DNA of 64,000 nt from an uncultured Gammaproteobacteria bacterium (GCA_963698895.1 CAVOSO010000005.1:6381-70380); one strand, 5' to 3'. Positions 10,491-22,848 are shown, numbered from the stretch's first letter. The notes: generated by a model not told the origin, from the sequence alone. Numbers and translations are program-made.

Positions 10491-10740
10491 CGCTATTCTC
10501 GGCTATCGCCGGAATCCGTCAATTATGGGTTCTACTGACGGCGGCGAGTCAAACGACAAAGCGGAGCCAGCTGCTAGGGATTTCGCCCGCTAATCCGTCG
10601 CCCCTGATCAAACTTCTGTTTTGTGGTTTGGGCAAGTTTCGGTTGCAACAATCAAGACACTCAGGCGGCTCTATTAGAAAAGCTTTCAGTCACTCGCAAC
10701 GTCGAGGTCTAACCCAATCTTGCCCCCTGCCCCATCTGGC

Positions 10741-10812: not shown

Positions 10813-10950
10813 TCGAGCTCCCTGATTGCTTCCCAGAGCTTGCCGCTCACGAATGGCTGCTTTCGGCGAATGGCGAGGTCCGCTTTACCCTCAATACCAG
10901 CCGCTCAAACGGCCGCTTTCGGGGTATCATGGATGTCTGCAAATGACCCT

Positions 10951-12277
10951 ATGTATGGACTCCTCCAACCTAATTTCTTAGGTTGGAAGGTCGACCAAAA
11001 CCCAAGGGAGTCCATACATGTCATATTCAACTACAGTTGGCGTCGACCTTGCAAAGAACGTGATCCAGATCTCGGTCGTTTCGAGCCGAGGCAAAGAGCT
11101 TTGCAACCGTTCACTCACGCGCAAGAAGTTCGCGGAGTTCCTGGGTAAACAGAAGCGATCGCTTGTTGCTTTTGAGTCGTGTGCGACATCGCACTACTGG
11201 GCCCGTGCCGCAGAGCGACACGGGCACGAAGCGCGCATCATCCCGGCCAAGGCCGTGGCACCGTTCCGGCAAGGCCACAAGACCGACAGCAACGACGCCC
11301 TGGCCGTAGCCGAGGCCGCTCGCCGGCCGAACATCAAGGAAGCACCGATGAAGACGGTGGAGCAGCAAGGTCTTCAAGCCATCCACCGATCGCGTGAGTT
11401 ACTGATCCAGGAGAGCACCGCATTGTCTAACCACGTGCGCAGCCTGCTGATGGAGTTCGGTATCGTTATCAAGAGGGGCTTTGCGTCGCTTCTGCGGGCA
11501 GTGCCCGAGATCCTCGAGGATGGGGAGAACGAACTGCCCGACCTGTACCGTCCGACGCTGCATCGCATGTACACCCGGTTGTTGGAGCTGCGTGAAGACA
11601 TCGAGGCGATGACCGGGGAAGTCGAGCGCCTGGCCAAGGCTCACCCGATCTGCAGCAAGCTGATGGCACTGGAGGGTATCGGCCCGAGTCGGTGCGTTGC
11701 TGCTGTACGCCACCATGGGTTCCGGGACCGCGTTCAGCAGCGGTCGCGAGTTCGCCGCCTACCTGGGTCTGGCACCGAAGCAGTACAGCAGTGGCGGCAA
11801 GACCACCATCGTGGGCTTGAGCAAGAAGATCGGCAACAGCCGACTGCGATCGGTGCTGATCCTGGGTGCTCGTGCCTACGTGTACAAACTCAAGGAGCCC
11901 AAGAGCTCGAAGGACCGCTGGCTGAAGGCGATTATCGAACGCAACGGCGAGAGTCGCGCGGCGATTGCCCTGGCCAACAAGAACGTCAGAACCGCCTGGG
12001 CTATGGTGACCCAGGGAACAGAATATCAACGTCGAGAGCAACTGGCGATGGCTGCCTAGAACGTCCTGCAAACAGAGACCACGTATCAGATAGAGATATC
12101 TGCTCCGGTGAAACCTATACCGCTTTGAGGCCGTAGAGCCCATTGACCCTTAGAGGAGCCGGAGTGCGCATACATAGTGGGCCAGGAGATAGCGTCTCCA
12201 CCAAAAGGCCAGATATACATACGCGTCCTAATTCTGATCGAGGAAACTGTTTGCTAGACTGGAGGAGTCCATATACA
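10951..12277 (+). mobile_element. IS110-family insertion sequence (IS1111-like layout: short left end, ~220-nt right non-coding end); boundaries approximate
   Basis: Inverted repeats ATGTATGGACTCCTCCA (10951-10967) and TGGAGGAGTCCATATACA (12260-12277). A third copy of GGAGTCCATACAT abuts the start codon. The element encloses the DEDD-type transposase reading frames. Confidence 0.65.
11018..12059 (+). pseudogene. IS110-family transposase with one frameshift near 11685-11695
   Basis: The N-terminal RuvC-like part is VGVDLAKNVIQISVV...FESCATSHYWAR...KTDSNDALAVAEA in ORF 11018... The C-terminal part is GALLLYATMGSG...REFAAYLGLAPKQYSSGGK...ALANKNVRTAWAM in ORF 11697..12059, in another frame. The junction lies at ALEGIGP. 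Confidence 0.85.
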
Positions 12278-12821: not shown

Positions 12822-12930
12822 GGCCGACCGCGGTAGTTCGCCAGGAGCATGAATGAGCGGCTGGTTTACCTCGCACTCCAGCCGGTCAAGTTTTCTGCGG
12901 TATGATGGGTGCTGATGACCCAAAGCAGCC
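12822..12930 (-). repeat. conserved ~110-nt module, copy A (part of micro-ORF 12759..12941)
   Basis: Aligns with 16267-16376 and 22711-22820. Central hairpin CGGCTGG/CCAGCCG. On the minus strand it reads HQHPSYRRKLDRLECEVNQPLIHAPGE. Confidence 0.6.
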
Positions 12931-12935
12931 ATTAA

Positions 12936-12976
12936 GTACATCCCAGAATTGACGGGTAATTCCTACCTGCCAAGAT
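12936..12976 (+). promoter_or_regulatory. promoter box A: GTACATCCCAGAATTGAC(G)-16 nt-CAAGAT
   Basis: The 18-nt box is identical to copies C and D. It holds a TTGACG -35-like hexamer and a -10-like xAxxAT at 16-nt spacing. The riboswitch-like leader begins about 10 nt later. Confidence 0.5.
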
Positions 12977-12983
12977 CATCAAT

Positions 12984-13095
12984 CGATAAAGGCAAACCTG
13001 AAAAAGTCAGGGACGCAATACCACGGGCCCTCGGTTTCTTTGAAAAGCCATCGATCACTTCTCGAAGGATCCAAGACCGCGGCGCCTCGGGATGG
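12984..13095 (+). promoter_or_regulatory. GEMM-I (c-di-GMP-I) riboswitch-like leader, copy A (divergent, possibly degenerate)
   Basis: AAAGGCAAACCTGAaaaagTCAGGGACGCAATACCACGGGCCC matches the 5' half of the GEMM-I signature. The ACGCAAAGC box reads ACGCAATAC, and the 3' GCCGGGCTGCC strand is replaced by CCGCGGCGCCTCGG. Confidence 0.45.
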
Positions 13096-13444
13096 TCTAG
13101 AAATCGATTCGGGAGTCCGAAATTGAAGGGCCCCAGCGCAGATATTGCCTGGCTTCCTACGGAACCCAGCGACCGTTGTCAATCTATCCGACGGGAATTT
13201 TGCATGTGACGAGCACTGGTCACGAATGGTATCCCTGGAGCGTCAGGGAAATAGAACGAAACTCAAACGTGATACATAAGGCGGCTTGTCGTTTTGACAC
13301 GACCCATGACAATGACATGACTCGAGTGGACTGCAATCAAATAGACTTCAACCCGGATGTCGCCGTTTTCTTGAACTGACTGGAGGCGTGAAGATATTTG
13401 TTGAGGGATTACTTTCGAGGATTGTAGTGTAGGAGTTTTTGCCA

Positions 13445-13939
13445 ATGAGGAAAAAAATACTACATAGCCTAACTCTCCTAGGTATGTTGTCTTTATATGG
13501 ATGCAGTGCAGCTCAATTAGCAAGTATAAGCGAGGCATTTGATTGTGCTGACCCCCTTTCCATCGATTGCTCTGTCTCAAGACAAAGAGCAAATGAGGAA
13601 AGGCGAAAGGCAGATGAATATAGGCGCGAACAAGAACGGTATGAACGCGAATACGCAGAGTATCTGGATTGCCTTAACAGACGAGAGGAAGCTAAGGTTT
13701 GGGAAGCGGAAGCTGAAGAAGCTGAACATGATTATGAAAGATGGCGGTTAGAGCAAAAATATCTTGAGGACGGTGTTCTGGATGAGTTAGAGCAAGCGGC
13801 TCTTAAGGAAGAAATTCGAGTTCTAACCGAGCTTAGAGAATTTCAAGCTAAGCGCTCGAAGGTATGGCAAGAAAAATATTTGGAAGATACTAGTTGTTAT
13901 AAGCCCTACAGACCCATTGAGCCCTACTACTCATACTAG
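13445..13939 (+). CDS. lipoprotein with highly charged coiled-coil-like region
   Basis: AGGAG lies 9 nt before the ATG at 13445. MRKKILHSLTLLGMLSLYGCS is a lipobox. A long E/R/K-rich segment follows (RRKADEYRREQERYEREYAEY...). The local DNA is AT-rich. Confidence 0.6.
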   Translation: MRKKILHSLTLLGMLSLYGCSAAQLASISEAFDCADPLSIDCSVSRQRANEERRKADEYRREQERYEREYAEYLDCLNRREEAKVWEAEAEEAEHDYERWRLEQKYLEDGVLDELEQAALKEEIRVLTELREFQAKRSKVWQEKYLEDTSCYKPYRPIEPYYSY

Positions 13940-14126
13940 TAGATGTTTGTAAGAACTCTGCCATTCATGAGCCGCCGAGTTTCCAGTCATCGTATCGCAG
14001 TTGTTTGCGCATCGGCCGCTTATGAATTGTTGGGAAATTGACATGCGATAAGTCCGGATCGAACATGCGCGACGCGTAGCAATCAGAATCGGGGCACGAT
14101 CGGATGGCTACTACTCGCATATATAC

Positions 14127-14522
14127 TCACTCACTGCATAGGTACTTCTCTCCTGCCCGCGTATTACCTTTCCGCCACATTGTAACGAATTTATGTTTGG
14201 GGTTCGATGAAACCGCCACCGCGGCGTCTTCATCCGATTCTTGCGCATCATCATGAACTGTCGGACTGCTCGAATAGCTTCCATTTTCCAGCCCTGATTT
14301 TGATTTCCAATGGGTACAGTACTTCTGTTGATAAGCTTCCTGTTTCCAACTTGAACAATGGCCATTGGAGCCACTGCTCGCGCACACTTGTCGATACGCC
14401 GTCCGATATGACCATCCGGTGCAGTTTTCGTCGTAAGCGATCAGAGCTCCACACCCCGACACGAATAAGACGGGGCCCGTAGCGAGCGTAAGCACCGCAC
14501 CTACAGTGGCTGTCCTGCACAT
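14127..14522 (-). CDS. small Cys-rich lipoprotein, unknown function
   Basis: ATG at 14522 preceded by AAGGGGTGA. MCRTATVGAVLTLATGPVLFVSGCG is a lipobox. Confidence 0.6.
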   Translation of the reverse strand: MCRTATVGAVLTLATGPVLFVSGCGALIAYDENCTGWSYRTAYRQVCASSGSNGHCSSWKQEAYQQKYCTHWKSKSGLENGSYSSSPTVHDDAQESDEDAAVAVSSNPKHKFVTMWRKGNTRAGEKYLCSE

Positions 14523-14684
14523 GTTCTTCACCCCTTGAGAAACAACAAATTGTGCTCTATCCAACGGTGATTGCCACAGTCGATTTTGGGATTTACTTAT
14601 CGTCCGATCTTGGTGGTTGGCTGAACGTCACCATTTCCCAAACAAGAAGTTCAGCTGGCTGATATTCGAAAAAGCGGACGTTAC

Positions 14685-14725
14685 GTAGATCCCAGAATTG
14701 ACTGACTCTTTCGCAGGCGCACAAT
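14685..14725 (+). promoter_or_regulatory. promoter box B: GTAGATCCCAGAATTGAC(T)-17 nt-CACAAT
   Basis: One mismatch to the 18-nt box. The mismatch destroys the minus-strand ATG present in copies A, C and D. Same geometry relative to riboswitch B. Confidence 0.5.
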
Positions 14726-14727
14726 AG

Positions 14728-14830
14728 CTCTAATAAAGGCAAGTCTGACCAGAGTCAGTTACGCAAAGCTACGGGGCCTCGTCTCCTTCGGGCCGTCTCC
14801 AAAGGATTCAAGATCGCCGGGCTGCCACCC
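14728..14830 (+). promoter_or_regulatory. GEMM-I (c-di-GMP-I) riboswitch-like leader, copy B
   Basis: AAAGGCAAGTCTGACcagaGTCAGTTACGCAAAGCTACGGGGCC...CAAGATCGCCGGGCTGCC. It ends about 15 nt before the SD (GGAG at 14846) of ORF 14857. UCUCC motifs inside the second arm are complementary to that SD. Confidence 0.75.
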
Positions 14831-14856
14831 AATTACCTGAAGTGCGGAGAAGGAGA

Positions 14857-15231
14857 ATGACAAATCTGCGAATTGAAGATTGGCAGCTTGGCCAGGCCGC
14901 TTTTTTATTACGACCCCTGGTCATACTGTGTGTTGTCGTCGCATTGCTCTGTATTCCGACCGGAAATACTTGGGCGGATGCTAAAGAAAAGTGGAATGTC
15001 GATATTGGACGCGTTGGCTCAGAATCAGCCTCAATGTGTTTTGTTAGCCTGCCAAGTGCGAACACTGGCTGCGCTAGCGATATCGTCTTCTGCAGAGATG
15101 GCGACAATTGTAAGTCAATGTGCACGACACTCCTATCAGTAAAGCTAGCCGGCAGGCGCCTAACGCGCATCAGATATGATCTCAACACGACGAACCAGTT
15201 GTGCCTATTGACAGGGATAATGTTTGAGTAA
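14857..15231 (+). CDS. small secreted Cys-rich protein, unknown function
   Basis: GGAG lies 7 nt upstream of the ATG at 14857. MTNLRIEDWQLGQAAFLLRPLVILCVVVALLCIPTGNTWA has signal-peptide character. The predicted mature part contains six cysteines. Confidence 0.5.
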   Translation: MTNLRIEDWQLGQAAFLLRPLVILCVVVALLCIPTGNTWADAKEKWNVDIGRVGSESASMCFVSLPSANTGCASDIVFCRDGDNCKSMCTTLLSVKLAGRRLTRIRYDLNTTNQLCLLTGIMFE

Positions 15232-15280
15232 ATTGTGCTCAAAGGGCATTAGTTGCAAGTCGAGTTTTCCGAGAAATATC

Positions 15281-16132
15281 ATGCGCCAACGTAATGCTGT
15301 TGCCATACGATCCGTGTTCATAACACTATCCGCAATAGTTGTCATTTGCGGTTTCGTAACGGCCGCGGCAGCGCAAGACGAGGGATCTGTAAGAAGAACG
15401 GCATTCATAGTCAATGTTCATGGTTGGCAGTTTGAGAATGCTGGTTTTCGTTTATGTGAAACAGCGGAATGCGTTGTCGAACATGGAGGGGCACTTATAC
15501 CGGCCCAATTCCTGTCAACTACGTATCCCTGGGCCCTATGCGGTGGGATGTCTCTTAGCGCACTAAGAAGGTTCCGTGAGGCTCGACCAGTCGAACAGCT
15601 TTCTTATGAAGTGAAGGATGAACTTAGAAATGCCCAGGTAGAGACTGTGAATGTTAGTACGAATACTTTTTGGAGATACACCAGTCGACTAGCGCGTGTC
15701 AGACCCACTCTTGGACAGAGTACGAATCAGTACTGGCAGATCGTGAAACAGTCCATTGACAAGGGCGAGCCAATTATTCTTGGTTTGATCTATGCACGAT
15801 CAAGATTGCCCCACGATGTCTTCAAGAATCATCAGGTTCTGGCGATTGGATACGAAACAAGAGGAACGGAACGTCCAATCTCGATTATTGTGTACGATCC
15901 GAATTTCCCAGCAGAGGAATCGCGCATAGAGCTCCTCTTAGAGGAACAGCCGGGGAATTTCGCACATATTGCCAAGGTGCGGAAGTATAAGAGCCATGGG
16001 GTTTCAACAGAACATAGACGATGTGTTGGCTGTACCGACGAAATCTTTGGGTTCTTCCCAATTCCTATTGGAACTGGGCCAACAATCGTATTGCCTGTAT
16101 GGCACGTCCCAGCCTTGTCACTGATGATGTGA
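15281..16132 (+). CDS. secreted protein with possible papain-like Cys/His/Asp arrangement
   Basis: The ATG at 15281 gives the signal peptide MRQRNAVAIRSVFITLSAIVVICGFVTAAAAQ. Ordered candidates for a Cys-His-Asp/Asn triad are WALCGGMSLSAL, NHQVLAIGYE and IIVYDPNFP. The fold call is inference only. Confidence 0.55.
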   Translation: MRQRNAVAIRSVFITLSAIVVICGFVTAAAAQDEGSVRRTAFIVNVHGWQFENAGFRLCETAECVVEHGGALIPAQFLSTTYPWALCGGMSLSALRRFREARPVEQLSYEVKDELRNAQVETVNVSTNTFWRYTSRLARVRPTLGQSTNQYWQIVKQSIDKGEPIILGLIYARSRLPHDVFKNHQVLAIGYETRGTERPISIIVYDPNFPAEESRIELLLEEQPGNFAHIAKVRKYKSHGVSTEHRRCVGCTDEIFGFFPIPIGTGPTIVLPVWHVPALSLMM

Positions 16133-16266
16133 AGTAAGATACGACAAATTTACGTCCTGCGAGCAAGTGAATCCCCATTGTAGCCGTAGAGTTTTCTGTT
16201 GTGGTCATCGACCGTCCAGGTGGGGTAGTCCTAACTCATTATTGCCACTCTCGAACGACAGCTAAT

Positions 16267-16376
16267 GGCCCGTTCTGAGACGTTCACCAGGAAGCTGACC
16301 GAGCGGCTGCTTCACGCTGTATAGCAGCCGGTCAAGTAATTTACGGTAATATGACGGCTTGTGAACCACAGCAGCG
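16267..16376 (-). repeat. conserved ~110-nt module, copy C (part of micro-ORF ending at 16262)
   Basis: Central hairpin GGCTGCT/AGCAGCC. On the minus strand it reads HKPSYYRKLLDRLLYSVKQPLGQLPGERLRTGH then a stop. Confidence 0.6.
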
Positions 16377-16411
16377 ATTCGCCAATCGAGCTTCGACGGC
16401 TTCGAATTTAA

Positions 16412-16452
16412 GTACATCCCAGAATTGACAATCTCCTGGGGATTGCTAGAAC
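16412..16452 (+). promoter_or_regulatory. promoter box C: GTACATCCCAGAATTGAC(A)-16 nt-TAGAAC
   Basis: Exact 18-nt box. TTGACA -35 and TAGAAC -10-like hexamer. Riboswitch C starts just downstream. Confidence 0.55.
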
Positions 16453-16457
16453 CTGCT

Positions 16458-16570
16458 GTTGACAAAGGCAAATCTAGCCAAAGCTAGAGACGCAAAGCCA
16501 CGGGTCCTCGCGTACTCCGCTACGCCTCCTGCGACGCGGCGAAGAACCCCAAGATCGCCGGGCTTCCGAG
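16458..16570 (+). promoter_or_regulatory. GEMM-I (c-di-GMP-I) riboswitch-like leader, copy C
   Basis: AAAGGCAAATCTAGCcaaaGCTAGAGACGCAAAGCCACGGGTCC...CAAGATCGCCGGGCTTCC. It ends about 27 nt before GAGGAG (16598-16603) and the GTG start at 16610. Confidence 0.75.
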
Positions 16571-16609
16571 TTTTCCAATCAGACCATCGGACTAGATGAG
16601 GAGCGGGTC

Positions 16610-17650
16610 GTGAACAGCATCAAGCTATTTTGGCTGTTGATAAGTGTGGGGCTACTGGGTGGCTGCGGCGGTGGTAGCGATGACGATACAATCAATAATA
16701 CTGCGGATGTGCCACCAACGATCTTGCCGGTCTACAACTTCCAGCTCGCAGGAGTTCAGCCCGGTACAGATATGACGGTCGATGTCGGTAACCTGTTTCA
16801 GGTCCGTGTCGACTTAGGCGACACTTTGCGTGGCAGCGTCAATCTTCAGGTCAACAGCCCGAGCAACGTTAGCTTCCTCGACTTCGTCACCAACGCCGGT
16901 TCGACGATGACAGTGGCGGTCGTGGGCAGCAAGACAGGACTGGACGGTGAATTTACAATCAATGTCACCACGGACGTCGTTGCCGGTCGTGACGACGAAC
17001 CGTCGAGCGGTGCTTTTGAGGTCGTGACGGAAGCCGATGTTTCAACAGTCGCCTTCGTAGCAAACGGTGTCGAACTGAGTCTAAACGGTGGAGCGCCGAT
17101 CTCATTCAGCTGGAATGACTACGATAATCTGCTGGACGATGTCCAGGCCCAGACGTGGCAACGCCGTGCATCGTTGGCCGGCGGGACATTTGCGTTCATC
17201 TTTGAACGTATGTTCGAAATCGCCGAACTTCTGGATAGCCTCGAGCTAACCGAGTCAACTGTTCCGGTAGTGACCGCATGTGATGAGTTCCCGGGCACGC
17301 CGCCTGTCGGTGTATTGCTGCAGGGTGAACACGTGTTGACTCGCCTGGGATCGTTTGAGGACCTGTCGCCGGGTGACGTGTTCGACTGGACATTTACCAA
17401 CTGCTGGTTTGCCTCTTCGAACACACTGATCGATAACTTTTTGCAGATGCAAAATTACATCGAAGTCATCGATTCCAGCAATACGCTGACGCGTATTGGC
17501 TTCGGGCCATACAACAATATGACTGGCGGAGTTCTCTATTTCGATTGGACTGTCGCTGAACCCGAAGAGAATCAGGGCGTGTACACGATTGATCCTGAGG
17601 ACCGAATCGTGGTCAACGGTGGATTCTCTATGCTGTTCACACAGCCCTAA
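16610..17650 (+). CDS. lipoprotein, unknown function
   Basis: GAGGAG lies 6 nt before the GTG. MNSIKLFWLLISVGLLGGCGGGSDDD is a lipobox. No recognisable catalytic motif. Confidence 0.7.
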   Translation: MNSIKLFWLLISVGLLGGCGGGSDDDTINNTADVPPTILPVYNFQLAGVQPGTDMTVDVGNLFQVRVDLGDTLRGSVNLQVNSPSNVSFLDFVTNAGSTMTVAVVGSKTGLDGEFTINVTTDVVAGRDDEPSSGAFEVVTEADVSTVAFVANGVELSLNGGAPISFSWNDYDNLLDDVQAQTWQRRASLAGGTFAFIFERMFEIAELLDSLELTESTVPVVTACDEFPGTPPVGVLLQGEHVLTRLGSFEDLSPGDVFDWTFTNCWFASSNTLIDNFLQMQNYIEVIDSSNTLTRIGFGPYNNMTGGVLYFDWTVAEPEENQGVYTIDPEDRIVVNGGFSMLFTQP

Positions 17651-17811
17651 CAACATCAGCCAAGCGCCCGGTCGGCCTGCAAGGCGCCCGGGCGCTATTC
17701 GCTCAGTGAACGTCTGCTCCTGGCTGGTTTCAGCCGATCTCCTTTTACGAGGTAGAATGGCGGCTGCTGGTCCATTGCTGCCATTCGGCAGGACAAGATG
17801 CGGAAGTCTCA

Positions 17812-18192
17812 ATGTCTGAACGTATACAGGAAAAAATTGGTTGGATTGGCGGGTGGTCTGGAGGATTCATCTGGGTTGTTATTCTCTCAGTAGTACTGCT
17901 ATTCAAAGGCCAGACGCTTGGTGCGGTTGCTGGATTCATTATTGCCGGGGTGGCCGGATTGGCAATTTTGCTCACCTCGCCCTGGCGGCACCCTCGCACG
18001 CCTTATCGGATACTGATGATACCGATTTACCTTCTTCTGTTTGTCGCCGTTGGCTGGGGTGTGTGTACCTTGGATGGACCGGAGAACATAGGATTCTCAA
18101 GTTGGTGGTCATTGGCAATCCTGTTCCCGGCGCTGCTGCCGCTGTGGACAGTGGGCAATCGACGCTGGGACGACGGAATGAGAGGTCATTAG
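17812..18192 (+). CDS. small integral membrane protein (about 4 TM segments)
   Basis: 126-aa ORF with four hydrophobic segments (GGFIWVVILSVVLLF, AVAGFIIAGVAGLAILL, ILMIPIYLLLFVAVGWGV, WWSLAILFPALLPLW). Confidence 0.6.
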   Translation: MSERIQEKIGWIGGWSGGFIWVVILSVVLLFKGQTLGAVAGFIIAGVAGLAILLTSPWRHPRTPYRILMIPIYLLLFVAVGWGVCTLDGPENIGFSSWWSLAILFPALLPLWTVGNRRWDDGMRGH

Positions 18193-18290
18193 GAAAGCGC
18201 AGCTTGGGGCGCGACGACCGTTTCTGGCCGTGAGCCGCCACTCGGGTGTTTTGAGGTGGGATGACTCCTACTGACCTTTAGCAGACGTCG

Positions 18291-18331
18291 GTACATCCCA
18301 GAATTGACTCGGGCAATTAACGGCGCATCAT
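18291..18331 (+). promoter_or_regulatory. promoter box D: GTACATCCCAGAATTGAC(T)-16 nt-CATCAT, no riboswitch downstream
   Basis: Exact 18-nt box about 45 nt upstream of the GGGGAGG SD and the ATG at 18376 of the GFA gene. Confidence 0.5.
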
Positions 18332-18375: not shown

Positions 18376-18729
18376 ATGGAACAACACTACGAAGGTGGGT
18401 GCCAGTGCGGCGCCGTCGCTTATGAGGTCGAAGTGGATGTTGATGGGTGTATAACGTGCAACTGCTCGCGCTGTCAGCCCCTCGGCGCCATTTTGGCGTT
18501 CGCGCCGCGTTCGCAATTCAAGCTCCTGAAGGGTGAAGACAACCTCACGGAGTATCGATTCAACAAGAAATTGATCGCACATCTATTCTGCAAGACGTGT
18601 GGGATACAGAGTTTCGCATACGGAGCCATGCCGGATGGTTCGGAGATCGCGGCGATCAATCTCAATACGCTGCACGGCCTGGATCCCAAATCTCTGAATC
18701 CGAAGCATGTCGACGGGCGGTCGATGTAG
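18376..18729 (+). CDS. GFA (glutathione-dependent formaldehyde-activating / CENP-V-like) family zinc protein
   Basis: MEQHYEGGCQCGAVAYEV...CNCSRCQ...FCKTCG shows the typical GFA cysteine pattern. GGGGAGG SD. Confidence 0.8.
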   Translation: MEQHYEGGCQCGAVAYEVEVDVDGCITCNCSRCQPLGAILAFAPRSQFKLLKGEDNLTEYRFNKKLIAHLFCKTCGIQSFAYGAMPDGSEIAAINLNTLHGLDPKSLNPKHVDGRSM

Positions 18730-18789
18730 ACGTAAGGTCGTTGGTCTGGAATCTGCCTAATAGGCGGCTTTTGGCCGAAGTGAGCCGGT

Positions 18790-19417
18790 CAACAAAAGTT
18801 GGCGTCGACCCTGCAAAGAAGGTCATCCAGGTCTCAGTAGTTTCCCCTCGCGGCAAAGAGCTGCTTAACCGATCGTTTACGCGGACCAAGTTCGCAGAGT
18901 TCCTGGGTAGAAAAAGCCGGCACTGTCGAACCACCTGCGCGGTATCCTGCTCGAGTTCGGCGTGGCGATACCGCAGGGCTTTGCCTCGTTACTCAAGACG
19001 TTGCCGGAGATCCTCGAAGACATCGAGTCGATGACCAAGGAAGTCGACGGCCTGGTAAAGCAGCACCCGGTCTGCAAGCGTCTCACGGCGATCGAGGGCA
19101 TCGGTCCGATCGGTGCACTGTCGCTGTATGCCGTGATGGGCTCCGGCAAGGCCTTCACCAAGAGCCGCGATCGTTGAAAGATCGCTGGCTGAAGGATCTC
19201 ATTGAACGGGCGGGACCGAACCGCGCCGCGGTTGCGCTGGCCAACAAGAATGTACGAACGGCCTGGGTGATGGTGACCCAGGGAACTGAATACCAACGTC
19301 GGCTGCAACTGTCGATGGCTGCCTAGAACGTTCTGCAAACAGAGACCACGTATCAGATAGAGATATCTGCTCCGGTGAAACCTAGACCGCTTTGAGGCCC
19401 TAGAGCCCGCTGACCCT
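18790..19417 (+). mobile_element. relic of the same IS110-family element (5'-truncated, three internal deletions, 3'-truncated)
   Basis: VGVDPAKKVIQVSVVSPRGKELLNRSFTRTKFAEFLG jumps to ALSNHLRGILLEFGVAIPQGFASLL. It then runs LPEILEDIESMTKEVDGLVKQHP...GIGPIGALSLYAVMGSGKAFTKSRD and RWLKDLIERAG...ALANKNVRTAWVMVTQGTEYQRR. The 94 nt from the stop codon (19324-19417) match 12057-12150 with 5 mismatches. Confidence 0.8.
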
Positions 19418-19586: not shown

Positions 19587-20516
19587 TTACGGCAGCTGCT
19601 CAAGCGCGGCCTCGGCCATCAGAGCATGCATTTTTCTCGTCGGGTGCAGCGGATCCCAGAATAAATACTCATCGCGATTCTTGCAGAACGCCCCTTCGGT
19701 GACGCCAAACGCCACGCAGGAATCTGTGACATTCGTGAGGCCGAATGCTTCCGGCGCGGCAAGCATCCCGCTGAAGAAAGCAAAGAAATCGACGACCGAG
19801 ACATTCATGTTGAACGGCTCGCCGGCGAAGGACTGGATCATGGGCGCTAGTAACATGTAATTGTAGAGCGCGCTGCCGCTCGGTGCCGGCGGATCCTGAG
19901 GTGGTGGGGCTATGGGTGAGGCCTCCAACGGCGGAATATAGGCGAACAGCAGATTACGCGCACCGCAACCATGGAGAGTGACGATATTCTCAGCGATGCT
20001 GGCGGTCATGCCGCCGAGGACGGCAAATGCGTCCTCTCCGTTGAGCAGGTCGAGCAGGTCAAAGTAGGCGGAATCCACGATGAACAGAGTGTCGTCCATG
20101 GGGGCGCCGGTGCAGTATCCATTGTCTTTCCAGGCCTGCACCTGGTCGTACAGGCTGGGGAGCACGTCGGCTGAGAATTCCCGAGCGCGCCCGTAACCGA
20201 CGGCATAGTTGCCAAAGACCGGGTTTCGATAGGCGGGCATTGCGCCTTTGGTCAGTTTCATCTCTGCCGCGAGGACTTCAACCCAGGTGCGGCCGTTGCT
20301 GAAATTGTAGCCTCCAATAGGATAACTGGGGCCAAATAGCTCAAACGGCGGGTGCGCAGTCTCGCCGGTCAACGCGAAGTGGTTGCCGGAATCCATGAAG
20401 CTGGCACCGAAGATGAAGATACGGTCATAGTCGTGGTCGGTATCCGCGACGGCCATCCCGGTCGCAAGTGGCAGAAGGGCCAGCAAGGCGACCATCATGC
20501 GTTTCAGAGTCTTCAT
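19587..20516 (-). CDS. SGNH/GDSL-family lipase/esterase, secreted
   Basis: ATG at 20516 preceded by GGAGAG. Signal peptide MKTLKRMMVALLALLPLATGMAVA. Block I is IFIFGASFMDSGN and block V is LFWDPLHPT (DxxH). Confidence 0.8.
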   Translation of the reverse strand: MKTLKRMMVALLALLPLATGMAVADTDHDYDRIFIFGASFMDSGNHFALTGETAHPPFELFGPSYPIGGYNFSNGRTWVEVLAAEMKLTKGAMPAYRNPVFGNYAVGYGRAREFSADVLPSLYDQVQAWKDNGYCTGAPMDDTLFIVDSAYFDLLDLLNGEDAFAVLGGMTASIAENIVTLHGCGARNLLFAYIPPLEASPIAPPPQDPPAPSGSALYNYMLLAPMIQSFAGEPFNMNVSVVDFFAFFSGMLAAPEAFGLTNVTDSCVAFGVTEGAFCKNRDEYLFWDPLHPTRKMHALMAEAALEQLP

Positions 20517-20733
20517 TTTATCTCTCCATTCAGTGACTCCGGGGCCGCAATCCCCAGGGACTGCCACCCCGTACAGGTAGCCTACGAAGGTCGTTTTATC
20601 GGTGCATGACGGCTGGGTGACGGGCAGCTGACGGTATCGGGACGAACCCGCTTTCAGTGCGTCGATAGTTCGGTTTACCACATGGTATTCACCTCCCGAA
20701 GCCTTAGAATGGGAGTCAAGAGGACAACATCCT

Positions 20734-22620
20734 ATGTACCGCTTCGATGATTTCTTGGCCGACCCAGAGACGTGGAGACTTTCCCGGGATGGTCAGGAGA
20801 TTCATCTTGAACCGGTGGTACTGAAGCTCCTCATCTACCTGATCGAGAACCGTGAACGACTCGTGACGCGTCACGAGCTGATGGACACGGTCTGGGGCGA
20901 CACGGTAATCAGCGAATCTGCGCTCACCAAGGCTGTGGCCAGGCTGCGGAAGGCGCTGGGCGACAACTCTGCCACCCATCGCTACCTGGAAACGGTACGT
21001 TCACTCGGCTATCGCTTCGTCGCCGATGTCGAGGAAATCGAGAGCCCGAATCAGCCTGCCCTGCGTCCCAGGAAGACTCGTGCAACAACCGCGCGCCGCG
21101 CCATGATGGCGGGCGCCGCCGTGAGCGTCGTGCTGATTATCCTGGCCGTCTCATGGTTCCGTGCGCCTCCGCACGAGACACCGCAAGAGCAAGTCATCCG
21201 CTCGCTCGCAGTGCTGCCGTTGAGCAACCTGACCGGCAACCCTGAACAGGACTATTACGTCGACGGCCTCCAGGACCTGCTGATAACAGAGCTTTCGCAG
21301 CTCCCCGGGATACGGGTCACGTCGCGGCAGTCGACGAAACGTTACCGCAACAGCGAGCTGCCCACGGCCGACATTGCCGGTGAACTGGGTGTGGAAGCAC
21401 TGGTCGAGGGCAGCCTGTTACGGGAAGGTAACAAGATCGAGGTCACTATCCAGCTGATAGACGGCCGGAGCGACGCGCACCTCTGGGCCGAGCGCTACAC
21501 GCGCGAGACGCCCTACGTGTTCAACCTGATCGCGGACATGGCAGACGCAATCGGCACCGAGATCGGTACACCAAGACCGTCGCCGGGGATCGGTGGTCTT
21601 GGCCGTGTGCTGACCGGCCCGGTCGATCCGCGCGCGATCGATGCCTATGCGCTGGGAACGATGCATCTCGATACGTTTACGAGGGATGGAATCCGGTCGG
21701 CCATCGAGCAGCTCGAGACGGCGGTCGCGATCGAGCCGAAGTTCGCGCTTGCGTGGGGCCAGCTGTCGGCCGCCTATGCGATGCAGGGCATGTTCGGTTT
21801 CACCTTGCCCCGGGAATCCAAGGAAAAATTCCTTACCGCTGCAATGCAGGCGATCGCGGCAGATGACCAAGTCGCTATGGGCCACGCCGGGCTCGGATTT
21901 GCGCGCATGTATATGGGCGACTTTGACGGGGGCTGCGAATCCATTGCCGAAGCACTGCGGCTCAACCCGTCCGAACCGTACGCGATTCATGGTGACGCAG
22001 ACTGCCTGCTGTTCGACGGGCGCATGGACGAAAGCGTCAACCGGTTGCGCGAACTCCTGACGATCAGCCCGTTCACCGCCATGCACAATATGCCGTTGCC
22101 GTCCCACCTGTACATGGCCCGCCGCTTTGACGAGGCCATCAGCGCGGCCACGGCAATGCAGGCGCGGACCCCCCAGTTCTCGATGCACTGGTTGATTGCG
22201 AAGTTTTACTGGGAGCAGGGCCGCTTCGACAAGGCGCTGGAGGAGGAGCGACTGGAGTTCGAGCGACGTGGCGACACCATCCTCCTGGCAGCCTTGGAAG
22301 AGGGTCTTGAAGCTGGCGGGCCGACCGGTGCCATGCTTGCCATAGCCGAGGCAATGGTTGACCGGGCGAGTGAAATCTACGTGGATCCGTTTGATATCGC
22401 GGAGATGTTTGCCCGGGCCGGAATGATTGACGAAGGAATTCACTGGTTGGAAAAGGCCGCTGACCATGGCTCGTACGAACTAACCTATGTCGCCTATTGG
22501 CCCCATCTGGATGTTTTGCGTGACGATCCACGGTTCCAGGATCTGCTGGTGAGCGTATATGGTCAGAGGGCTCGGGAGATCCAGCGGATCACTAGTGCGC
22601 ATCACGCTCCAGATCAATGA
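20734..22620 (+). CDS. membrane-anchored winged-helix (OmpR/PhoB-type, CadC/ToxR-like) transcriptional regulator with periplasmic TPR-like domain
   Basis: The N-terminus reads LVTRHELMDTVWGD...ALTKAVARLRKALGD...LETVRSLGYRFV. One TM segment (AMMAGAAVSVVLIILAVSWF). Then LAVLPLSNLTGNPEQDYYVDG and helical repeats. Confidence 0.8.
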   Translation: MYRFDDFLADPETWRLSRDGQEIHLEPVVLKLLIYLIENRERLVTRHELMDTVWGDTVISESALTKAVARLRKALGDNSATHRYLETVRSLGYRFVADVEEIESPNQPALRPRKTRATTARRAMMAGAAVSVVLIILAVSWFRAPPHETPQEQVIRSLAVLPLSNLTGNPEQDYYVDGLQDLLITELSQLPGIRVTSRQSTKRYRNSELPTADIAGELGVEALVEGSLLREGNKIEVTIQLIDGRSDAHLWAERYTRETPYVFNLIADMADAIGTEIGTPRPSPGIGGLGRVLTGPVDPRAIDAYALGTMHLDTFTRDGIRSAIEQLETAVAIEPKFALAWGQLSAAYAMQGMFGFTLPRESKEKFLTAAMQAIAADDQVAMGHAGLGFARMYMGDFDGGCESIAEALRLNPSEPYAIHGDADCLLFDGRMDESVNRLRELLTISPFTAMHNMPLPSHLYMARRFDEAISAATAMQARTPQFSMHWLIAKFYWEQGRFDKALEEERLEFERRGDTILLAALEEGLEAGGPTGAMLAIAEAMVDRASEIYVDPFDIAEMFARAGMIDEGIHWLEKAADHGSYELTYVAYWPHLDVLRDDPRFQDLLVSVYGQRAREIQRITSAHHAPDQ

Positions 22621-22710: not shown

Positions 22711-22820
22711 GGCCGTTCTGAGACGGTCGCCAGGAACATTACTGTGGGGCTGCTCTACTTCGCAAAGCAGCCGCTCGAGAAATCTGCGGCAATATGACGG
22801 CTTGTGAGCCGAGGCAGTCG
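22711..22820 (-). repeat. conserved ~110-nt module, copy E (no promoter box, no riboswitch)
   Basis: GGCCGTTCTGAGACGGTCGCCAGG...GGGGCTGCT-N11-AGCAGCCGC...AATATGACGGCTTGTGAGCC aligns with copy C. On the minus strand it reads HKPSYCRRFLERLLCEVEQPHSNVPGDRLRTA. Confidence 0.55.
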
Positions 22821-22848
22821 ATTGAAAAATTTGGAAAGGTGACGACTA

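Follow-up and report, generated by a model that had tools for sequence, protein, structure and literature searches.

We studied a reiterated 18-nucleotide (nt) sequence, GTACATCCCAGAATTGAC, in a 64,000-nt stretch of DNA from an uncultured Gammaproteobacteria bacterium (GCA_963698895.1 CAVOSO010000005.1:6381-70380; the whole stretch is called the window below, and positions are counted from its first letter). The 18-mer probably forms the conserved core of a portable 22-bp promoter box, standing before one type of cyclic di-GMP (c-di-GMP) riboswitch aptamer and before genes, in the window and in other genomes, mostly of the family Woeseiaceae.

Copies of the box and their promoter-like geometry

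Exact copies of the 18-mer lie at 12936-12953, 16412-16429 and 18291-18308 on the plus strand, and a copy with one mismatch lies at 14685-14702 on the same strand, the spacings between successive copies being 1749, 1727 and 1879 nt. A preliminary description of this DNA, made from the sequence alone, had reported four co-oriented copies about 1.7-1.9 kb apart, and its positions, strand and mismatch count were borne out. Two further copies with three mismatches each were found on the minus strand (10535-10518 and 14596-14579), and both face genes. The six matches in the window compare with 0.01 expected from 100 shuffles. When the four plus-strand regions were aligned, the 18-mer appeared as an island of identity between diverged flanks, in agreement with the earlier claim that it is better conserved than its surroundings.

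The host genome (3.52 Mb) holds seven copies at up to two mismatches, where a reversed-pattern control gave none, and a few additional copies appear at three mismatches. All genomic copies are intergenic and lie on the same strand as the downstream open reading frame (ORF). The genome-wide count that the preliminary description had proposed, as a way of recognizing a dispersed repeat unrelated to gene starts, found the box solely before genes.

Among 185,579 species genomes (one per prokaryotic species, 596 Gb), at least 117 contigs contain the exact 18-mer. Nearly all of the exact matches listed belong to Woeseiaceae or to unclassified sediment Gammaproteobacteria, and about 10 of those listed fall in unrelated taxa, roughly the number that chance would give for an 18-mer in 596 Gb. 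Within the host's own genus, the box was found in 23 of 61 genomes (reversed control, 0), and within the order in 28 of 301 genomes from several families, with up to 21 copies per genome in this order-level sample; the order-level control gave three genomes with one match each.

A conservation profile was built from 96 non-redundant Woeseiaceae contexts chosen on the 18-mer alone, with its first base numbered 0 and the four bases before it -4 to -1. Outside the search pattern, T at -3 was kept in all 96 contexts and A at -2 in 91, while positions -4 and -1 were mostly Y and R, respectively. The motif is therefore 22 bp long and can be written yTAr-GTACATCCCAGAA-TTGAC. Within it, GTA (0-2), C8 and GAATTGAC (10-17) are near-invariant, and positions 3-7 and 9 vary. 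The information drops to about zero upstream of -4 and to 0.1-0.4 bits within the 16-nt spacer that follows the box, and conservation returns at the -10 position, with A at +36 in 71% of the contexts, AAT at +38 to +40 in about 66%, and the best -10 hexamer beginning at +35 in 36 of 58.

TTGAC is kept in all four plus-strand copies of the window and in 76-77 of the 77 aptamer-anchored copies. The four -10 hexamers named in the preliminary description (CAAGAT, CACAAT, TAGAAC and CATCAT) are present, with a spacer of 16 nt when the -35 hexamer is taken as TTGACn; A2 and T6 of the -10 element occur in three of them, TAGAAC having no T6. A sigma-70 promoter scan called three of the six window boxes. 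The tRNA promoters of the host have the form TTGACA-N17-TAnAAT without the upstream GAA, so the box appears to combine housekeeping hexamers with something specific.

Read as a promoter, the motif would offer TTGAC as the -35 element for sigma-70 and nAnAAT as the -10 element after the 16-nt spacer, and the transcript would start about 47 nt past the box start, a position 2-6 nt upstream of the conserved core of the c-di-GMP-I aptamer. The phased -35 and -10 elements, the constant distance to the aptamer and the gene-facing orientation all argue for a sigma-70 promoter. The earlier proposal of promoter-like modules that share an element 5' of TTGAC gains from the phasing of the -10 element over the 96 contexts and from the aptamer found at 43-52 nt. 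The aptamer stems differ in complementary sequence from copy to copy, that is, by compensatory changes. With the spacer randomized and the stems diverged, the copies must be old, and the box would have been kept by selection and not by recent copying.

The c-di-GMP-I leader and the genes behind it

Aptamers of the c-di-GMP-I class (Rfam RF01051, gathering score 35 bits) were surveyed in five congeners that had not been selected on the box (G054, G139, G101, G289 and G285), a box being counted when it lay 43-52 nt upstream with at most three mismatches. None of the 27 short aptamers (80-90 nt) had a box, against 27 of the 38 long ones (at least 100 nt) and all three partial ones, and the distances between box and aptamer were 43-47 or 51-52 nt. 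Before several of the remaining long aptamers a box can still be recognized; it has diverged further but retains yTAr, G and AATTGAC. The genus thus has two length classes of c-di-GMP-I aptamers: a short one (80-90 nt, scoring 60-86 bits) and a long one (100-114 nt, with an insertion of about 30 nt), the latter being the sole class tied to the box.

Counted from the box, 27 of 53 copies at up to two mismatches are followed by an aptamer, and many of the aptamer-less ones have aptamer remnants in a shortened leader. This pattern fits one ancestral leader of promoter and aptamer from which the aptamer was sometimes lost, as may have happened before the GFA-family gene of the window.

The 148 ORFs located 3' of boxes fell into 102 clusters, most of them with a signal peptide or lipobox and without a Pfam family. 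As these clusters are unrelated, the promoter-riboswitch leader has been reused, and homologous promoter sequence stands before non-homologous genes in several genomes. Box, spacer, -10 element and aptamer would then form a portable leader, placed by Woeseiaceae in front of over 100 unrelated genes whose products are mostly secreted proteins or lipoproteins; in copies such as that of the GFA gene, the aptamer would have been lost and the promoter alone left.

We are not aware of any earlier account in which a conserved promoter box is linked to a single length variant of the c-di-GMP-I aptamer, and no paper joining integron cassettes with a c-di-GMP riboswitch was found in the open literature. 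The arrangement as a whole varies on known kinds, namely a promoter that is reused, one that is internal to a cassette, and a leader of the c-di-GMP-I type. It resembles other c-di-GMP-I (GEMM-I) leaders in that three of the four plus-strand boxes of the window feed such aptamers and in that the genes behind them code for surface or secreted proteins, which is usual for the class.

Promoters described as reused or putatively mobile (Nijveen, Matus-Garcia and van Passel 2012, PMC3575422) are very similar sequences that stand 5' of non-homologous genes, both inside one genome and across genomes, and the box shares with them a near-identical promoter before many non-homologous genes. It differs from them in three respects: promoter and riboswitch are here reused together, conservation is confined to a sharply bounded 22-mer and the -10 element while the spacer is randomized, and the copies stand at the edges of cassette-like units.

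Unless stated otherwise, the following features of the window are on the plus strand. Box A (22-bp motif at 12932-12953, TTAA plus the 18-mer) has a -35 hexamer TTGACG at 12949-12954 and, after a 16-nt spacer, the -10-like CAAGAT at 12971-12976, which would place the start at about 12981-12983. A degenerate c-di-GMP-I aptamer follows at 12981-13042 (27.1 bits, below threshold). About 400 nt with no ORF and no detectable module then precede a lipoprotein-like gene with the lipobox LYGC and no Pfam family (13445-13939), and the leader at 12981-13445 may be decaying.

Box B (14681-14702, one mismatch), which was called promoter-like, has TTGACT at 14698-14703 and CACAAT at 14720-14725, and leads into a c-di-GMP-I aptamer of 41.3 bits at 14728-14829. 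Behind it lies a two-gene unit (14857-16132) encoding a small Cys-rich membrane or secreted protein (14857-15231) and a secreted protein with a weak Peptidase_C39-like match (15281-16132; 21.5 bits, below the cut-off). Divergent from box B, the degenerate minus-strand box with three mismatches at 14579-14600 faces a lipoprotein-like gene at 14522-14127 (14127-14522, minus strand). The second degenerate minus-strand box, also with three mismatches (10518-10539), has GAGAAT at 10500-10495 as its -10 element and faces a decayed MBL-type gene.

Box C (16408-16429; TTGACA at 16425-16430, TAGAAC at 16447-16452) precedes a long-type aptamer of 59.1 bits (16457-16570) and a lipoprotein-like gene of 346 amino acids without a Pfam family (16610-17650). 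The claim that three copies feed riboswitch-like leaders was therefore upheld by two c-di-GMP-I matches above the gathering score and the sub-threshold match after box A. Box D (18287-18308; TTGACT at 18304-18309, CATCAT at 18326-18331) has a short, remnant-like leader without an aptamer. As previously described, it stands directly before a GFA-family gene (18376-18729; Pfam PF04828, 53 bits), and this gene family is also found behind a box, without an aptamer, in five other contexts.

Hairpin modules and the possibility of a recombination site

Some boxes are preceded by an imperfect-hairpin module of 100-130 nt. A profile search of the host genome found 33 copies of it in five or six clusters; one contig of the host (G000, C2:144105-155184) carries 16 modules in about 11 kb, alternating with single small co-oriented ORFs. 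Alignment to the hidden Markov model of the module revealed compensatory changes in both stems, which marks the module as a structured element rather than the remnant of a gene. Measured from the RTT triplet of the module, the box starts at discrete offsets: 5 nt (n = 18), 4 nt (n = 4), 7-8 nt (n = 7), 35-36 nt (n = 12) and 41-42 nt (n = 7). The units are compact and lie in co-oriented arrays, with the order box, leader, ORF, module, and the box is located at the 5' edge of these cassette-like, module-bounded units.

In the window, an attC-like module at 12830-12938 ends at the start of box A, another at 18210-18294 ends at the start of box D, and a third at 16274-16385 lies about 30 nt 5' of box C. 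The module at 17696-17790 has no box after it and is followed by a membrane-protein unit without a box (17812-18192). These four are on the plus strand, and two more are found at 10875-10952 and 22712-22825.

Several observations concern the modules themselves. In the 35-36 nt offset class, a second conserved block, approximately CTTAGACCGaCTCcAAtTTAr, lies between module and box; in relatives (for example L082, L084, L098, L126, L153 and L167), it takes up the 21 nt that precede the box. At 10951-12277 of the window, an IS110-family element (PF01548) interrupts a module, cutting it at model position 121, and a second, decayed copy of the element (18789-19417) has interrupted the module behind the GFA gene. 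The relative L094 has this latter module intact, followed by the next box. Elements of the IS1111-attC type are known to insert in attC sites.

The box might instead be mainly a recombination signal, either the cassette-side extension of an attC-like crossover site or a secondary site of another recombinase, with its promoter look incidental. We regard this as unlikely. The discrete offsets from the RTT triplet, the compact module-bounded units and the two different upstream junction types of the GFA unit would all suit a recombination site, as would the junction G|TTARGT of the 5-nt class, which fits the integron core GTTRRRY. However, most module-bounded units, among them the array of 16 modules, have no box, and for 112 of 167 boxes no upstream module could be detected. 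Neither the conserved -10 element nor the fixed aptamer distance is predicted by a recombination site, and IntI is absent from nearly all of the box-bearing genomes tested.

The relation to integrons was followed through the integrase. The layout of a cassette array, with co-oriented single ORFs each followed by an imperfect palindrome, is found both on contig C2 and in the window. An attC site has conserved AAC...GTT triplets, R and L boxes, an unpaired spacer and extrahelical bases. The module triplets are ARY and RTT, with GTT in only about half of the copies, and the adjoining stem is paired and not unpaired as in attC. The single IntI of the host (TIGR02249, 447 bits; contig C7:91704-92639) is not on the contig that carries the array. 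The region around it (C7:90900-92645) contains a bona fide IntI gene, an attI-like region and, on the cassette side, canonical CCTAAC...GTTAGG attC sites, whose sequence type is unrelated to that of the window modules. None of the five box-rich congeners has an IntI. Among the 61 genomes of the genus, IntI occurs in 9 and the box in 23, the host genome being the only overlap, and no module came closer than 1.5 kb to an IntI gene in the six genomes inspected. With IntI off the array contig, absent in congeners and not co-occurring, membership of the arrays in an integron is disfavored, and we describe the arrays as attC-like.

In the sedentary chromosomal integrons of Vibrio, internal promoters free the units from a distant platform promoter (Blanco et al. 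2024, PMC11014356). The boxes resemble the promoter cassettes of that study in being internal promoters in co-oriented arrays. Those cassettes are gene-less, belong to IntI-linked arrays and have no common motif (PMC11014356), whereas here the promoter belongs to gene-bearing units, one common box recurs, most copies have a riboswitch, and there is no co-occurrence with IntI. A gene-less box, directly followed by a module, was seen in 1 of 167 cases. Gene-less promoter-riboswitch cassettes were also considered as the source of the leaders and were rejected, given this count and the finding that no module remnant was detected in the leader at 12950-13450, even at E = 100.

Carriage of the box by phages or plasmids was likewise rejected, as viral contigs contained no exact box and plasmids no similar leader. 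Some boxes lie beside tRNA genes (relatives L156 and L161; host contig C3:352211-352700), which suggests that box-bearing units are also present in tRNA-linked islands.

The upstream half of the box and its meaning

The 13-17 bp located 5' of the -35 element match the riboswitch core in their invariance. Neither with the 200 nt upstream nor with the 260 nt downstream does the box show more complementarity than reversed and complemented controls do. Being invariant, unpaired with its flanks and absent from housekeeping promoters, the upstream part is most likely a docking site for a protein. The 13 nt 5' of the -35 element would most likely form a putative protein site that overlaps the -35 element and is centered near -41, and the bound protein could equally be a repressor or an activator in a class II position. 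The strongest contacts would be made with GTA and GAA, two triplets that a single helical turn separates, and a site of such asymmetry might be bound by a tandem dimer or by a protein that has two recognition helices. Expression would in that case pass two gates, the protein acting at initiation and c-di-GMP acting on the RNA.

At class II promoters, CRP or FNR binds at -41.5; MarA/SoxS-type regulators use asymmetric boxes, and PhoB boxes replace the -35 element. The box resembles such sites in that a putative protein site of about 20 bp overlaps the -35 element, with its center near -41 from the predicted start, and in that its best triplets are 10 bp apart on one face. It differs in having no 22-bp dyad, in keeping a near-consensus -35 element and in lacking a known cognate factor. 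The analogy is one of geometry only.

Three sources of a binding protein were examined. The FleQ box of Pseudomonas is a 14-bp palindrome, GTCaNTAAAtTGAC, recognized by a c-di-GMP-responsive regulator of sigma-70 promoters (PMC8125075). Its right half, AATTGAC, is identical in our motif, but the left half here is ATCC and not GTCA, and the invariant GTAC falls outside the 14-mer. With a half-site match only and no convincing FleQ gene in the host genome, where PF06490 gave just 28- and 23-bit matches in ORFs of 214 and 291 amino acids, a FleQ site was not supported.

The second candidate was encoded in the window itself. A divergent pair at 19587-22620 comprises a GDSL-type lipase gene (minus strand) and a gene for a 628-residue regulator with winged-helix (Trans_reg_C), membrane and TPR parts (plus strand, 20734-22620). 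The pair is syntenic in the relative L078, and in two other genomes a box unit begins 22-57 nt past the stop codon of the regulator; in the window, a module and a cupin gene follow the regulator instead of a box. An orthologue of the regulator was found in 7 of 61 congeners, and 17 box-bearing genomes are without it, one of them 100% complete and carrying 11 boxes. As a general box factor, this protein was rejected because it is missing from most box-bearing genomes, which makes it linked cargo. Finally, a survey of recurrent neighbors of the boxes returned a TPR-protein family and ORFans only, with no DNA-binding or recombinase family among them. The shared regulator site that the preliminary description had suggested for the upstream 12 nt is still the best guess, but it stands unproven, FleQ and the neighboring regulator having both failed.

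Several points weigh against the box as a protein-regulated promoter. The searches of FleQ, the neighboring regulator and the recurrent neighbors yielded no box-binding protein. By direct inspection, the motif has no dyad symmetry beyond 4-bp palindromes, unlike CRP/FNR class II sites, and a good TTGAC -35 element is unusual for a strictly activator-dependent promoter. In many copies, the first six nt, TTARGT, coincide with the 3' core of the upstream module and so may be constrained by recombination and not by transcription; a recombination role could explain these six bases. The sequencing runs that hold parts of the region are sediment-metagenome DNA and no RNA run is listed, so the start site and promoter activity, like the existence and sign of the protein factor, are what we infer from sequence.

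A plain strong sigma-70 promoter, whose upstream half was kept by descent or gene conversion with no dedicated factor, would agree with the failure to find one, and all copies could plausibly come from one leader, as the aptamer remnants of the aptamer-less copies indicate. We consider this account quite improbable, because the adjoining 16-nt spacer is fully randomized and the compensatory changes in the aptamer stems make the copies old. Moreover, gene conversion would homogenize contiguous tracts and not a sharply bounded 22-mer, and the housekeeping promoters of the host have no such upstream element. If the box were nevertheless a strong promoter kept by descent, it would be a case of ordinary promoter reuse.

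The preliminary description had also offered an alternative-sigma determinant. The extended motif could serve as the -35 determinant of such a factor, of the extracytoplasmic function (ECF) type or other, in line with the long invariant stretch around the -35 element and the patchy occurrence of the motif among genomes. This is very unlikely, since both hexamers are sigma-70-like: TTGAC and nAnAAT at 16-17 nt are the housekeeping pattern of the host tRNA genes. ECF promoters combine a short -35 element of the AAC type with a CGT-like -10 element, features not seen here, and the conserved stretch, with 17 nt 5' of TTGAC, far exceeds the contact of sigma region 4. A constraint from a divergent micro-ORF starting at an ATG in the box, also raised there, or from an RNA or DNA pairing role, is scarcely credible: minus-strand ORFs of 60 and 69 codons do start in or near boxes A and C, but the median over the 96 contexts is 18 codons with no conserved peptide, only MYL being shared and encoded by the box itself, and pairing was rejected for want of any excess over the controls described above.

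Woeseiaceae are among the most abundant bacteria of marine sediments, and to our knowledge almost nothing has been reported on their gene regulation. The 22-bp box, if it is the promoter element proposed here, marks out over 100 accessory genes, encoding secreted proteins and lipoproteins, as a regulon-like set, and its coupling to one c-di-GMP-I variant suggests a stacked control of the surface proteome. The finding is also relevant to the expression of cassettes that lie far from a platform promoter and to the nature of attC-like arrays that have no IntI. Tentatively, and with considerable doubt, Woeseiaceae might possess an IntI-independent pool of cassette-like gene units, each with a 22-bp operator-promoter under a lineage-specific master regulator and a c-di-GMP riboswitch, the box doubling as the 5' junction. 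Were this so, a large, shuffled set of genes for secreted proteins would be switched by two stacked signals.

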